Shown: positions 6,032-19,268 of the stretch, piece by piece
Layout: every line of letters starts with the position of its first letter
Numbering within the stretch: the stretch's first letter is position 1
Assembly (NCBI RefSeq): GCF_041886205.1
Contig: NZ_CP169029.1
DNA from: Escherichia coli
Lineage (GTDB): Bacteria > Pseudomonadota > Gammaproteobacteria > Enterobacterales > Enterobacteriaceae
Length of the DNA stretch: 64,000 nucleotides
Strand: one strand, 5' to 3'
The notes under the pieces: generated by a model
The model's database searches: none
The model's input: only the letters and a program-made list of their open reading frames with translations
What the model was told of the DNA's origin: nothing
Made by a program: the position numbers and the translations under genes

Positions 6032-6105
6032 GCGGGCGTAGTTCAATGGTAGAACGAGAGCTTCCCAAGCTCTATACGAGGGTTCGATTCCCTTCGCCCG
6101 CTCCA
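6032..6105 (+). tRNA. glyU: tRNA-Gly (anticodon CCC)
   Basis: 74-nt sequence GCGGGCGTAGTTCAATGGTAGAACGAGAGCTTCCCAAGCTCTATACGAGGGTTCGATTCCCTTCGCCCGCTCCA with cloverleaf pairing and CCC anticodon. Confidence 0.9.
6076..6105 (+). repeat. attL: 30-bp 3' end of glyU, duplicated at the distal island end
   Basis: acgagggttcgattcccttcgcccgctcca is identical to 19239-19268. Confidence 0.75.
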
Positions 6106-6107
6106 GT

Positions 6108-6137
6108 TTACTGATAAATAAGCATATTTTTATTTAT
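6108..6137. repeat. perfect 11-bp inverted repeat immediately 3' of glyU (tRNA terminator or integrase arm site)
   Basis: ctgataaataa-gcatattt-ttatttatcag. Confidence 0.4.
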
Positions 6138-6452
6138 CAGCTAGTTACTTAGCCCCGCTAATGCAGGTACAGTCGTAACTACACATTGCACAATCGCCGC
6201 GCCTGTCGCGTGGTTGGTGTGTGGTAGTCGGGAGCATATCACCGCGCTGGCAGTGGTTTCAACGTTCTTACTGCGACAGCCCAACAACGAACAAAAGCCG
6301 CCTGCCCGGCATAATCCCGAAGACTTTTAGTGAAGCGCATTTTAGCCCGATGCCCCCGTTCTGTCGCCGTCGCGAGACGCCGCAGGGGATAAACAGGTTT
6401 ATGGTGGTCACGGTACTTGCAGACCATATGCAAGCTCTGCCAGCGGTTCGGC

Positions 6453-6564
6453 CTCGCTCCCCTTGGGTACATGGTCATCCTGATAAACTTCACTAACTGA
6501 CATAACGCTGATAAAGTCGCCAGAGGCTCCGCTTGTCTCTTTACCACTAATGGGGCTTTATGGC
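6453..6564. repeat. copy 1 of a ~110-bp imperfect direct repeat (about 80% identical to 7003-7112)
   Basis: Shared blocks ctcgctcc..gggtacatg.tcat..tgataaa.ttcact..ctgacataac.ctgat..gtcgcc..ctccgc..accac.aa.ggggct. Confidence 0.5.
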
Positions 6565-6635
6565 TTCTATTGCCTTGATTTTTAATGTTTATGTTCTAGT
6601 CTGAATGTAACTTTGACACAGCAAGGAGTGAAAAA

Positions 6636-6914
6636 ATGTCTGATAATATGAAACGTTTCGAAGTTAAACGAGAAGGCATAGTTTACGGATATGTAGAAGA
6701 GGGTACATTTGAAACCCGGCGTTGGAATTTCGTCTACCCAATCGTAGATGGAAAGATATCTATGGACATTACGACCGTTAATATCCAAAAACAAGACGGA
6801 AAGACCCTTTTGGAATCACAAATCAAAAATATTGGTTTTGATGTCGATTTTGAAAAAAGAACCCTTACAAGAAATGATGGTACAGTTTTTGATTTAGTTG
6901 AAATCGATAGTTAA
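6636..6914 (+). CDS. hypothetical small protein (92 aa) bracketed by the two direct-repeat copies
   Basis: Strong RBS (aaggagtg) 7 bp upstream of ATG; hairpin downstream (ggcaggagt...actcctgcc at ~6940-6975); no recognisable domain. Confidence 0.5.
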   Translation: MSDNMKRFEVKREGIVYGYVEEGTFETRRWNFVYPIVDGKISMDITTVNIQKQDGKTLLESQIKNIGFDVDFEKRTLTRNDGTVFDLVEIDS

Positions 6915-7002
6915 TCATCACTAAAAGTCTTCACACTTGGGCAGGAGTACCCACCCCTTGGGAACTCCTGCCTGTATTCAAACCCGTTTCAAGTAGCTAC
7001 GT

Positions 7003-7112
7003 TCTCGCTCCTTCGGGTACATGATCATGATAAAATTCACTGTCTGACATAACCCTGATGCTGTCGCCTGACGACTCCGCGTGTTGTCTTACCACCAACG
7101 GGGCTATATGCG
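7003..7112. repeat. copy 2 of the ~110-bp imperfect direct repeat
   Basis: See 6453-6564. Confidence 0.5.
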
Positions 7113-16553: not shown

Positions 16554-16561
16554 GAAAAGTG

Positions 16562-16954
16562 ATGCGGGGCTATTTGGAACACCTCGGCAATATACCGCTG
16601 GCGGAACGGATTACAAACGCTGCTGCATTCGAAGATGTTTATCGCTTCCTGTTGAATGGTTCCGGGCGGCTGGAGCTGCGCCGTGCTGACGTGGCTGCTG
16701 TCCGTGTCTTCTTGTGGAATTATCAGTACCGTCGCTGTGCGGTGACAGGTAAGCCGCTGCGCCTTGCGTCTGCCGTGCTGGATCACTGCCACCGAACCGG
16801 GCGCGTGCGTGCTGTGGTGCATCGTTCTGCTAATGCTGCCGAGGGCGGCTATCACGTAGGGCGTTTGTGCGGTATGTCCCCAACCAGCATGGGGGCGATG
16901 CTGAGTTGCTATCGCCAGCAATATAAAGGACTCGGCATTATTTATCCGAAATGA
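16562..16954 (+). CDS. possible endonuclease VII / HNH-like protein
   Basis: C..TG...(x)LDHCHRTGRVR segment resembles the recombination endonuclease VII motif (CxxC...DHxHxTGxxRG); weak. Confidence 0.35.
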   Translation: MRGYLEHLGNIPLAERITNAAAFEDVYRFLLNGSGRLELRRADVAAVRVFLWNYQYRRCAVTGKPLRLASAVLDHCHRTGRVRAVVHRSANAAEGGYHVGRLCGMSPTSMGAMLSCYRQQYKGLGIIYPK

Positions 16955-16996
16955 CGGGGCTACTATGCCCCGTATTTTAACTGGCGGGAGGTGTTA

Positions 16997-17914
16997 TCAA
17001 ACAGGAATATTCAAGTAAGCGCAGATTGCATTAGTCAGCAGAGCCGGAGCTACCGCACCCGCAATTTTGAGGCTGCCAGAGTAAGCTTTGCCTATCATAG
17101 CTCCGACCCAGTTACCAATTTCCCCTCCAAGATTATTTGATGATGTGGGGGCTGGGGACTGCTCTATTGCTTGTTTCAACGTCTTAATGTCGCTGTCTTC
17201 AATGCCATATTCTTTTAGTTGACGCTCAAGAGTATTGAAGTCACCAGCTGTTATGGAATTTTGCTGATTAATATCCCCAGTGTTTCCAGCACCAATTGCA
17301 CCAGAGTTGTTAACATTTCCGTTGAAATTATTAATGTTATTTACTGTCATACCTGCCGCCTCTTTCTTTTCTTCGAGAGAAAATAACAACCCTTCACCGA
17401 GTATCCCTTTTCTTTCAAGTAATAAAGCCCAGTCGAGAATCCTTGAGCGAGTATTTGAAAGTATTTTGGTTATCTGTGTGGGGTTAATGCTATATGCCAT
17501 CCGAAAATCGCAGTCGCCCATTTCCTGCAAGAAGTCAGCCAGAAAAGATGGGAGGTCACTATATAGTGTGCTGTCCCGTTTCGCGTACTCAATCAACATT
17601 GATACAGGATTGTTTATGTGAACAGTTGTTAAGGTATCGTAGATATCTTGATGCTTTTCCTGTGTATTACTTAGTTGATATGGAATCCAACCGACATATG
17701 GATTGAACGCTCGAATCGGAACATTTCTGAGAACTCTGTAGTCGGGAAGTAGATCATGTGATGGATAGCCGTTTAATTCATGCTCAAGCCACTCAGATAT
17801 ATCCTTTAGGTCTAGTTTGACTGAGATCATTTTTGCTCGTGCCAATAGCTCCTCAATATCGGTTGAGCTTGAGCTAGCCATTTCTTGTAACTTAAGGACG
17901 GGAGAATTGTTCAT
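16997..17914 (-). CDS. AbiTii-like abortive-infection protein candidate with Gly/Asn-rich linker and hydrophobic C-terminus
   Basis: N-terminal ELLARAKMISVKLDLKDISEWLEHELNGYP resembles the AbiTii N-terminal region; AT-rich; directly downstream of the integrase. Confidence 0.45.
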   Translation of the reverse strand: MNNSPVLKLQEMASSSSTDIEELLARAKMISVKLDLKDISEWLEHELNGYPSHDLLPDYRVLRNVPIRAFNPYVGWIPYQLSNTQEKHQDIYDTLTTVHINNPVSMLIEYAKRDSTLYSDLPSFLADFLQEMGDCDFRMAYSINPTQITKILSNTRSRILDWALLLERKGILGEGLLFSLEEKKEAAGMTVNNINNFNGNVNNSGAIGAGNTGDINQQNSITAGDFNTLERQLKEYGIEDSDIKTLKQAIEQSPAPTSSNNLGGEIGNWVGAMIGKAYSGSLKIAGAVAPALLTNAICAYLNIPV

Positions 17915-17934
17915 TGAAGCCCCTCAAAAGTTTT

Positions 17935-19152
17935 TCAGCATGTTATCGCATCATATTTGACTAACTCAACATGTCTCGATAACTCTTGCATCCCAGCTCC
18001 CTTGCTGTATGTCCTGAATGCTTCAGTTTTGGCCTTTTGTTCGGTGTGCCCTGTGATTGCACCTATCCGCTGTTCTGGTACGCCAGCCCTATCTAAGCAG
18101 GTGATGAAGTGACCGCGCAGTGAATGGAAGCATTGGCGATCTGTAGCCGCTGGCAGCACGCGACGGCGTAGCCGTGTGAATGCCTGAGAATACCACGGGC
18201 CGCGCTTACCATCGGCGCGTTTAATCTTGTTTGATTGGGGCAGTAGGTATTCCCCGTTGTTCTGCGAAAGGTATTTATCAACGATGCTAATTAATAGCGA
18301 GTGTATGGGGACGTGCCTTACGCCCGCTTTAGTTTTAGATTTGCTGACGTAGAAGCACCGTATCCCTTCAACTGTGACGATCTCATCTCGTTTGATGCTG
18401 GCGATTTCGTCGAGACGCATACCGGAATACAAGCCGATTATGATTACGTCGCGCACCTCGCCACCTGCCTCTTTTATTAATGCCTGTAGTTGGTGAGGCT
18501 CAAACGGCTGGTAACTTTCAATGGTGCGGCGGGCTTCCAGATTGTGGCCGTGGAACGGGTTGCTGTCCGGTATCTGATCGTAACGTCTCTTGGCGAACTC
18601 ATAAAGACTGCCCAAGGAGGTTAACCAGTTTTGCACAGTCTGCGGAGCTGCATCACTTTGCTGCTGGGTATCAACGAACTCTGAAACGAGCCGCCGCCCA
18701 ACTTTATCTAAGGTGATATCTGTCTTCTTGATGCTTTGGAGAAATACCTCTACCGCTCTGGCCGACTTGCTCAATGTAGAGAATGTTCGGCGCTCGCTAT
18801 ACACCGCCATGTACTCATCACGGATAGCGGACAGCTTGGGAATCATTGTTGAAACATGTGTAGTTTCGGGTGATTTATTGCTGGCCTGTTTTAATAAAAT
18901 TTGCAGGGAGCTAAGCGTGTTCTGGATTCTAATATCTTCGCGCTCAGGATTTAGTAATGTCTTGATGTTATTGAACTCAATCAGCATGTGGTTGCGAAAA
19001 TGCCGAGCCTTTACGATGTCCCTAGTTCCCGTGGATTTGCGCCAAGCCCGTTTATTGCCAAACAGATGGCGCATGTATTTTGGGACAAAGATTTGAAATA
19101 TCCAGACGCCGTTATGGCTTTGAAAAAGATACTGATTGTGCTTGATAGGCAT
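17935..19152 (-). CDS. tyrosine-type site-specific integrase
   Basis: 405 aa; C-terminal catalytic residues (R...HSLRGHF...Y); adjacent to attR. Confidence 0.85.
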   Translation of the reverse strand: MPIKHNQYLFQSHNGVWIFQIFVPKYMRHLFGNKRAWRKSTGTRDIVKARHFRNHMLIEFNNIKTLLNPEREDIRIQNTLSSLQILLKQASNKSPETTHVSTMIPKLSAIRDEYMAVYSERRTFSTLSKSARAVEVFLQSIKKTDITLDKVGRRLVSEFVDTQQQSDAAPQTVQNWLTSLGSLYEFAKRRYDQIPDSNPFHGHNLEARRTIESYQPFEPHQLQALIKEAGGEVRDVIIIGLYSGMRLDEIASIKRDEIVTVEGIRCFYVSKSKTKAGVRHVPIHSLLISIVDKYLSQNNGEYLLPQSNKIKRADGKRGPWYSQAFTRLRRRVLPAATDRQCFHSLRGHFITCLDRAGVPEQRIGAITGHTEQKAKTEAFRTYSKGAGMQELSRHVELVKYDAITC

Positions 19153-19238
19153 AGCTTTTTGTCCTATAAAAGCACGCTATCAGGTACAGCCATTTGTACA
19201 ATGTTGGGATGGGTAAGCAAGTTTCCGACTTGTTTTAA

Positions 19239-19268
19239 ACGAGGGTTCGATTCCCTTCGCCCGCTCCA
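19239..19268 (+). repeat. attR: 30-bp copy of the glyU 3' end
   Basis: Identical to 6076-6105. Confidence 0.75.

Follow-up and report, generated by a model that had tools for sequence, protein, structure and literature searches.

A glyU-borne island of Escherichia coli that is probably a partly decayed satellite of virulent T7-type podophages

The DNA analysed here is a stretch of 64,000 nucleotides (nt) from Escherichia coli (assembly GCF_041886205.1, contig NZ_CP169029.1), called the window in the following. It carries an island inserted at glyU, a transfer RNA (tRNA) gene, and we read this island as probably a partly decayed satellite of virulent T7-type podophages, namely the genus Bonnellvirus and its relatives. 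Somewhat less firmly, we propose that it belongs to the first recognised satellite family of virulent T7-type coliphages, whose members would use promoters of the helper polymerase, copy the helper terminus, build private heads of one-third size and spread defence cargo between genera, including an uncharacterised TIR/RsiV-like protein. A satellite lacks a full virion, lysis and replication set and carries parts that match a helper. In the present family, the phage-related genes are limited to capsid, scaffold-like, terminase-like and endonuclease VII-like genes, while a terminus block and promoters match Bonnellvirus. A first-pass annotation of the window had taken the island for a generic integrated element and thereby probably missed its type, a decayed member of a satellite-like family.

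The non-coding DNA of the island is one of the links to the candidate helper. About 1.1 kb free of open reading frames (ORFs) lies between the serine recombinase and helicase genes (Table 1), and all 15 matches of the region upstream of the helicase in the phage collection were Bonnellvirus-like phages. The phage counterpart of the matching block lies in the sole large non-coding gap (~1.5 kb) of these genomes, which extends from endolysin, the last late gene, to SAMase, the first early gene; three or four early promoters of the TTGACA type follow a few hundred bases downstream of it. In T7-type genomes, the terminal repeats and the concatemer junction are located between the last late and the first early genes. 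The block of the enteropathogenic E. coli prototype E2348/69 is 96.6% identical to that of phage megetsur over 179 nt and the block of strain NCTC11023 is 97.6% identical to that of phage BHUENT7 over 170 nt, while three further island copies (L009, L013 and L014) show 87-91% identity to megetsur or BHUENT7 over 165-224 nt. The capsid genes of islands and phages, in contrast, have reached saturation at synonymous sites (dS ~1.9-3.8). Since the block is near-identical while the capsid genes are saturated, it was either recently exchanged or is held to the helper sequence. The resemblance is not confined to the block, as the 400 nt to its left are A-poor and 60-63% pyrimidine in phages and islands, compared to 48-49% elsewhere.

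Promoter-like motifs of the phage polymerase type have also been found in the same region. In the record of phage LIMEzero, stretches of 20 nt are annotated as 'putative phage specific promoters', and a related motif of Lidtsur, megetsur and glasur reads ATGAA(A/G)GTG(T/A)CTA followed by TAGTGATA or CTAAGGA, with a T7-like CTATAG core. Its sites keep their positions among these phages: ahead of the DNA-metabolism genes, directly behind the RNA polymerase gene, at the gp36/37 junction and inside an internal-virion-protein gene; the motif is present on the opposite strand inside the terminal block as well. A matrix was built from 13 sites of only three phages, and both strands were scanned using the lowest training score as cut-off. 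The site 10608-10631 was the only match in the 64-kb window. Six of eight relatives gave one to three matches, all located in the block or in the ~400 bp that precede the helicase, and two (L003 and L015) gave zero, L015 having one at a cut-off 4 bits lower. No match was obtained in the island flanks or in three control loci. Moreover, window positions 10611-10632 are identical at 22 of 22 nt to positions 20015-20036 of Lidtsur (L004) at the gp36/gp37 junction. The Lidtsur stretch overlaps a gene start whereas the island copy does not, which argues for a regulatory motif, that is, a promoter. No sigma-70-like promoter was predicted between 9657 and 10737.

In the phages, the terminal non-coding region also holds leftward phage-type promoters, at 40544(-) in megetsur (L008), 41416-41432(-) in Lidtsur and 637-656(-) in LIMEzero (L007). 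A leftward promoter reading into an A-poor tract, conserved in three phages, may serve replication or packaging. A covariation of GTGAC and GTGTC between leftward and rightward promoters was also considered; it holds in copies L001, L009 and L013 and fails in L002 and L014, and it was not used.

The proteins of the island point to the same phages. Over 97-98% of its length, the intact capsid protein of the family shares 55-56% identity with Bonnellvirus capsids (Lidtsur, megetsur, glasur and J8-65), and its identity to the capsid of LIMEzero is 52%; all five are lytic Autographiviridae of ~42 kb. For the 226-aa ORF, hhalign gave an alignment with the C-terminal end of the scaffolding protein, which has 387-411 aa (probability 81%, E 1.2e-5, 34% identity over 94 columns); this alignment extends to the penultimate residue. 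Similarly, the 68-aa ORF could be aligned by hhalign with the small terminase of 101 aa, of which it covers the N-terminal ~58 residues (probability 74%, E 2.8e-5), with 46% identity over 41 columns and an identical MAAAELS motif; a match to phrog_891 and tblastn matches to the phage small terminase were also obtained for it. Among the phages compared, no counterpart exists for the helicase, for the serine recombinase or for seven small ORFs. The ratio of non-synonymous to synonymous substitution rates (dN/dS) among island copies was 0.06-0.21 for the capsid, scaffold-like, terminase-like and helicase genes, which are all four genes tested. Such values indicate purifying selection, and therefore the four genes are maintained and are not debris.

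A survey of relatives revealed a compact family. The core of the island (10738-15166) matches 58 of 5426 complete E. coli genomes, with one copy each, while the exact island is present in none of them, the best coverage being 56%. The members are 13-15 kb in size and occupy glyU, leuX or thrW, leuX being the commonest site. The annotated relatives are NCTC11023 at glyU (L001), E2348/69 at leuX (L002) and N18-04097 at thrW (L003). In a scan with one genome per species, the same element was found beside tRNA-Leu(CAA) in Kosakonia, Kluyvera, Enterobacter and Trabulsiella. A core of 15 genes keeps a constant order across the five genera: serine recombinase, non-coding region, helicase, seven small ORFs, scaffold-like ORF and variable ORF, followed by the capsid protein (331 aa), an HNH nuclease, ORFs of 141 and 99 aa and the endonuclease VII-like gene. 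RNA polymerase, DNA polymerase, portal, tail and large terminase genes are absent from every copy. Relaxase, oriT-associated and type IV secretion genes were likewise not found in PHROGs, NCBIfam, PADLOC and Pfam searches of the ORFs. Certain core proteins are 100% identical between the E. coli and Enterobacter copies. Taken together, near-identical core proteins across genera and the lack of conjugation genes point to recent horizontal transfer by some vehicle. The hosts of Bonnellvirus-like phages are Escherichia, Enterobacter, Cronobacter, Kosakonia and Pantoea, which overlap with those of the islands. Descriptions of satellites of Bonnellvirus, Autographiviridae or T7-like phages were not met with in the literature searched, an incomplete search that gives absence of evidence only, and the island family is apparently undescribed.

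Outside the core, the copies differ in two hotspots, one extending from attL to the recombinase and the other from the endonuclease VII-like gene to the integrase. The first contains the TIR gene with a 92-aa ORF (window, L003), a DUF3800 protein or a 230-aa membrane protein. The second contains an AbiTii-like gene (window, L013, L014), a methyltransferase with a partner (L009) or a DUF3606 protein (L001). Integrases from different tRNA sites are only ~40% identical to each other.

The copy in the window has lost part of its head genes. The first ~158 residues of its chimeric ORF match the major head protein family phrog_267 at profile positions 15-174 of 410. The window has no counterpart of positions 13872-15325 (1.45 kb) of the NCTC11023 copy, the same gap appears against L009, and the junction is at ~16215. 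Through this deletion, found only in the window copy, the capsid gene has lost its C-terminal half, and the HNH gene and the 141-aa ORF are gone altogether; all three genes are intact in the nine other copies. Judged by its genes, the window copy probably cannot make its own capsids. It retains an intact integrase, att sites, one phage-type promoter and cargo.

The integration of the island at glyU is certain. The tRNA-Gly(CCC) gene glyU (6032-6105, + strand) is the sole tRNA of the window (ARAGORN). It was left intact beside the insertion. The 30-mer ACGAGGGTTCGATTCCCTTCGCCCGCTCCA at its 3′ end has two exact copies in the window and occurs nowhere else in it, the right-hand copy being read directly as an exact duplication of the tRNA end. 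No such repeat is expected by chance, none having appeared in 100 dinucleotide-preserving shuffles with up to three mismatches allowed. The bases to the left of the two copies are unlike, T at 6075 and A at 19238, so the att repeat is exactly 30 nt. The tyrosine integrase stands immediately inside the right repeat, its gene ending 86 nt short of the attR copy on the island side, and its DNA is 96% identical to the integrase of the glyU-borne relative in NCTC11023. For the empty site, 800 nt from each side (5306-6105 and 19269-20068) were joined and searched against the complete E. coli genomes. The top hits gave a single ungapped match with 99.8-100% identity, and in 3355 of the 5426 genomes a single place covered 80% or more of the query. 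The gene order of E. coli HS is xdhABC, actS (ygeR), glyU, a GH15 gene and the ETT2 type III secretion genes. Given this precise empty site, the island is an exact insertion of 13,163 bp (6106-19268).

Every element of the first-pass reading of this locus was borne out: a site-specifically integrated element of ~13.2 kb at glyU, flanked by a tRNA-derived 30-bp direct repeat with an integrase next to the right copy, lying between ygeR/actS-glyU and the ETT2 side, which are joined directly at the repeat in the genomes with the empty site. The TIR protein, serine recombinase, RecQ-like helicase operon and AbiTii-like gene that it had named were all recovered in profile searches. The comparison of guanine plus cytosine (GC) content that it had proposed shows a mosaic inside the island, with 0.36-0.39 in the TIR cargo, 0.52-0.56 in the core and 0.42 in the AbiTii region, and flanks that differ from each other, with 0.49-0.54 on the left and 0.31-0.40 on the ETT2 side. 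Its guess that the island would be the home of novelty in the window was sound, the novelty residing mainly in the element itself and in the TIR cargo.

Adjoining attR, the GH15 gene (19464-20639) is a 391-aa ORF in the window, compared to 1545 bp in E. coli HS; in NCTC11023 it measures 1038 bp and is followed by IS421. This gene may be truncated or decaying in several lineages. In an Rfam scan the window gave the tRNA only, ctRNA_pGA1 at 8672-8765 reaching 23.8 bits, well under the threshold of 45.

A mechanism for the satellite can be proposed from these parts. Upon infection, the RNA polymerase of the helper would read the phage-type promoter or promoters and switch on the operon from helicase to capsid, and the element would be excised by its own integrase. 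The copy of the terminus block, with its leftward phage promoter and A-poor tract, would then let the helper amplify and package the element. The T7 phage replicates, packages and transduces plasmids having just a T7 origin, a pac site and a terminal repeat, according to the passage of PMC13236587 that cites Chung and Hinkle (1990). The family's own capsid and half-length scaffold could form heads sized for a genome of 14-15 kb, compared to 42 kb for the helper, and the small-terminase-like peptide might divert the packaging of the helper or block it. As phages of the T7 type cut their DNA at defined junctions during packaging and do not proceed by headful, a private capsid and a short scaffold would make sense for a smaller genome. 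The genome of P4 is one third the size of that of P2, the same ratio as for the intact element and its presumed helper. The helper would provide portal, tail and large terminase. As the most speculative step, a guess, the serine recombinase might recircularise the injected DNA or resolve multimers. The two hotspots, one near attL and the other near the integrase, would carry exchangeable anti-phage cargo.

T7-type phages are model systems and frequent therapy candidates. If the satellite reading is true, the family would open a new route by which genes pass between enterobacterial genera, add a new kind of resistance against lytic podophages and provide a natural counterpart of engineered T7 phagemids. 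The reading is directly testable, as intact copies exist in the available strains E2348/69 and NCTC11023 and matching phages have been isolated on K-12.

Several observations weigh against the satellite reading. Excision, replication, packaging and transfer are all deduced from sequence. In the scan of IMG/VR one contig was found, and it was integrated; no packaged or circular form was seen there. The metagenome scan gave five contigs, and the three examined were island fragments, two of them with flanking tRNA-Leu, without terminal overlap; the remaining two, of 224 kb and 404 kb, are chromosome-sized and were left out of the examination. No excisionase or AlpA-like gene was recognised in the island. 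The window block is the most diverged copy, with 77-88% identity to megetsur, BHUENT7 or glasur over 59-78 nt, and its leftward promoter-like sequence (reverse complement of 10359-10388) has diverged and fails the matrix. The phage promoters themselves are defined by motif conservation and by the 'putative' annotation of LIMEzero, and not by experiment. No terminal repeat is present in the records of Lidtsur, megetsur, glasur and LIMEzero. The record of BHUENT7, which is unverified and marked circular, has a 121-nt overlap that looks like an assembly overlap. The physical ends of Bonnellvirus genomes are thus not located in the records, and so the labels 'terminus', 'pac site' and 'origin' derive from position. 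With probabilities of 74-81%, shallow alignments and partial coverage, the homologies of the terminase-like and scaffold-like proteins are moderate, and the two proteins could be interference rather than assembly factors.

Piece 1 of the phage-derived DNA (Table 1) is a further such point. It occurs also in the Z/fun cargo hotspot of the P2-like phage R18C, where it adjoins a gene 85-89% identical to the hotspot-1 cargo of the NCTC11023 and E2348/69 copies. Since piece 1 is found in a P2-like hotspot, it moves with cargo cassettes and is not helper-specific, which weakens it as a candidate for a helper-specific pac site.

The main rival explanation draws on some of the same observations. A non-transmissible defence island would express phage-derived decoys from captured promoters, poisoning head assembly and packaging, while the block titrates terminase. 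Of their phage counterparts, the terminase-like protein represents no more than the N-terminal ~58 residues and the scaffold-like one no more than the C-terminal ~100, and such fragments could inhibit; defence cargo is present, and the IMG/VR and metagenome scans gave no packaged or circular form. Nevertheless, we consider this explanation rather unlikely. It accounts less well for the full-length capsid gene kept under purifying selection, for an element size of about one third of the helper and for the spread between genera, where near-identical core proteins without conjugation genes imply recent transfer. Moreover, interference and transfer are not exclusive, as known satellites do both.

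It is very improbable that the island is what remains of a temperate T7-like prophage after the loss of most of its genome. Some T7-like phages carry integrases, and an integrase together with an Autographiviridae-type capsid, endonuclease VII, promoters and terminus sequences would fit such a remnant. However, the same set of 13-15 kb recurs in the 58 E. coli genomes and in four other genera, always without polymerases, portal, tail and large terminase, and an identical selected core is not expected from random decay; the helicase, serine recombinase and seven small ORFs lacking phage counterparts do not fit either. An ordinary integrative mobilisable island, moved by conjugation and carrying phage-like parts incidentally, is scarcely credible, because the tRNA site, tyrosine integrase and mosaic GC content typical of genomic islands come with no relaxase, oriT-associated or type IV secretion gene in the ORF searches, and the phage-like parts form the conserved core and not the accessory portion.

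The cargo of the satellite candidate in the window comprises two putative defence genes. The TIR protein combines a TIR_2 domain (E 4.4e-20) with PdaC and DUF3298 domains on its C-terminal side. Its AlphaFold model, with a mean pLDDT (predicted local distance difference test) of 87, matches DUF3298 structures including the lysozyme-bound anti-sigma factor RsiV (5jen, E 1.2e-9). This TIR-DUF3298 architecture of ~380 aa is conserved across Proteobacteria under the mere name 'TIR domain-containing protein', and the genes stand alone in varied mobile-element contexts. In the window the TIR gene is accompanied by the 92-aa ORF, the same pair being present at thrW in N18-04097. A Thoeris assignment was rejected, as the ThsB models gave only E 0.007-0.008, no ThsA-like gene is found in the island and the TIR domain is fused to PdaC/DUF3298. 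It is a reasonable idea from the domain composition and the structural model that the protein is a single-gene defence, in which the RsiV-like domain would sense a phage protein and switch on the TIR NADase. In the incomplete literature search, no paper combined DUF3298, TIR and phage. The fusion of TIR to a lysozyme-receptor-like (RsiV) fold is of interest as a widespread gene that is unstudied in defence. AbiTii is paired with AbiTi in Lactococcus. Next to the AbiTii gene of the island, the interval 16954-17935 holds no other ORF as a partner, though no search was aimed at an AbiTi model.

Cargo cassettes are exchanged with the hotspots of P2-like phages. A cassette made of the 230-aa membrane protein and ~140 nt upstream shows 84-88% DNA identity between positions 1750-2586 of R18C (L023) and 6638-7445 of the E2348/69 copy, piece 1 being the sequence at its boundary.

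With regard to the core genes, the helicase matches the PADLOC 'DpdF' sub-model PDLC02858 over its full length (E 1e-269, 893 bits), while its score with the NCBIfam DpdF model is 126.9 against a cut-off of 550. Dpd models gave no match among nine other ORFs tested. The Dpd 7-deazaguanine DNA-modification system, a dpdA-dpdK cluster that includes the transglycosylase components DpdA/DpdB, was rejected accordingly, the helicase alone matching and the NCBIfam score being far below the cut-off. The sub-model appears to have been built from helicases of the island family, and it could give false Dpd calls. The slot of the serine recombinase is always between piece 1 and the terminus-like block. 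Its occupants (window 9081-9656, L009 160-792, L012 and L014 ~8085-8706) are merely 26-35% identical in some copies, which looks like functional replacement rather than descent. An invertible switch around the recombinase was rejected, since convincing inverted repeats are absent and the orientation is alike in all ten copies. Pfam and PHROGs gave nothing useful for the core ORFs of 144, 58, 187, 79, 79, 141 and 99 aa. At the left end of the island, the last ~110 bp of the non-coding block are duplicated at 7004-7110, and the two copies bracket the 92-aa ORF.

Table 1. Features of the glyU island and their positions in the window
Feature	Position	Strand	Remarks
attL core	6076-6105	+	3′ 30 nt of glyU
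Left-end non-coding block	6313-6572	.	93-94% conserved in all members, whatever the tRNA site or integrase
92-aa ORF	6636-6914	+	hotspot 1; no family match
TIR protein, 379 aa, cytosolic	7248-8387	-	hotspot 1; C-terminal PdaC/DUF3298 (RsiV-like) domain
Piece 1	8670-8758	.	non-coding; common to sequence just after Bonnellvirus endolysin (last gene)
Serine recombinase, resolvase/invertase type, 191 aa	9081-9656	+	own sigma-70-like promoter at 9014-9043
A-poor pyrimidine-rich tract	9962-10362	.	63% C+T on + strand; parallels the tract left of the phage leftward promoter
Piece 2, terminus-region block	10285-10409	.	homologous to Bonnellvirus genome-terminus region
Second promoter-like motif TTTAAAGGCTACTAATAAGG	10421-10440	+	conserved in islands; 16/20 positions match the LIMEzero promoter TTTAAAGGCAATCACTAAGG
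Promoter candidate	10608-10631	+	22.9 bits; 130 nt upstream of helicase start codon
RecQ-family SF2 (superfamily 2) helicase, 614 aa	10738-12582	+	~260-aa N-terminal region without assigned function
Core ORF, 144 aa	12628-13062	+	ORF call
Small-terminase-like, 68 aa	13055-13261	+	homologue of N-terminal ~58 residues of phage small terminase
Core ORF, 58 aa	13258-13434	+	ORF call
Core ORF, 187 aa	13431-13994	+	weak helix-turn-helix hints
Two core ORFs, 79 aa each	13991-14230 and 14243-14482	+	ORF calls
Scaffold-like, 226 aa	14486-15166	+	C-terminal domain of phage head scaffolding protein, ~half length
115-aa ORF	15326-15673	+	phrog_21723; variable slot between scaffold-like and capsid genes
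Chimeric ORF, 270 aa	15741-16553	+	capsid residues ~1-158, joined in frame with the 99-aa ORF of the family
Endonuclease VII-like, 142 aa	16526-16954	+	phage-related core gene
AbiTii-domain protein, 305 aa	16997-17914	-	hotspot 2; residues 6-190 AbiTii (PADLOC, E 6.1e-41); C-terminal extension
Tyrosine integrase, 405 aa	17935-19152	-	phrog_1 E 4.9e-35; Xer/integrase-type NCBIfam matches
attR core	19239-19268	+	exact 30-nt copy of tRNA 3′ end

Comparison with known satellites places the element in none of the classes defined by hallmark genes, namely P4-like satellites, classical phage-inducible chromosomal islands (PICI), capsid-forming PICI (cfPICI) and the minimalist islands PICMI. To our knowledge, the known satellites of E. 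coli (P4-like, PICI, cfPICI) exploit temperate phages. P4 resembles the present family in being one third the size of its helper, in integrating at a tRNA (mostly leuX in the islands), in copying a packaging sequence of the helper, in having cargo hotspots and in the small capsid expected, and one hotspot-1 cassette is common to the islands and the Z/fun hotspot of P2-like phages. However, P4 reshapes the capsid of its helper with Sid and Psu and replicates by its alpha primase-helicase, whereas the islands bring their own capsid and appear to rely on phage-polymerase promoters. The hallmarks psu, delta, sid, epsilon and alpha gave no PHROG match in the window or its relatives, and no search was aimed at a cos site. 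Classical PICI have a module of int, alpA and a primase or replication initiator, together with genes that redirect packaging. Of these, an integrase is present in the islands, AlpA-like or primase/rep matches were not obtained, and the replication-type gene is the RecQ-like helicase.

The cfPICI are closer in several respects, being integrated elements of ~10-15 kb that encode a major capsid protein of their own and have the integrase gene at one end and, as in the intact copies here, an HNH gene. Their module consists of capsid, protease, portal, head-tail connectors, small and large terminase and HNH. With this full head and packaging module, cfPICI take only tails from temperate phages, in contrast to the present family, whose apparent helper is a virulent T7-type podophage. 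Portal, protease, connectors and large terminase were not found in the islands; the capsid (truncated in the window), the HNH gene (in the relatives only) and a terminase-like fragment were. PLE, whose helper is ICP1, and PICMI are chromosomal islands with strictly lytic helpers that double as anti-phage defence, and with such helpers the activation of the satellite must be triggered by infection. A PICMI is a minimal island of ~5-7 kb with int, alpA, fis, primase and terS. The elements described here are 13-15 kb in size and have no alpA, fis or primase matches among their ORFs. PLE and PICMI differ further in having Vibrio hosts, in encoding no capsid protein and in sharing no genes with the islands among those tested, and we know of no use of helper-polymerase promoters by them. 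For MulchRoom and MiniFlayer, satellites of Streptomyces phages, PMC10690885 reports encapsidation genes of their own and, in one case, a virulent helper; by that description they differ in host phylum and life style.

In engineered T7 phagemids, the T7 origin consists of a phage promoter and an adjoining tract, and the islands have a near-identical copy of the corresponding region of their presumed helpers. The phagemids are laboratory constructs carried in helper-sized heads, whereas the islands also encode head proteins, an integrase and cargo. By analogy, the element would be most like a cross between a cfPICI, which brings its own capsid, and a T7 phagemid of natural origin, which mimics the helper terminus; its helper would be virulent, like those of PLE and PICMI.

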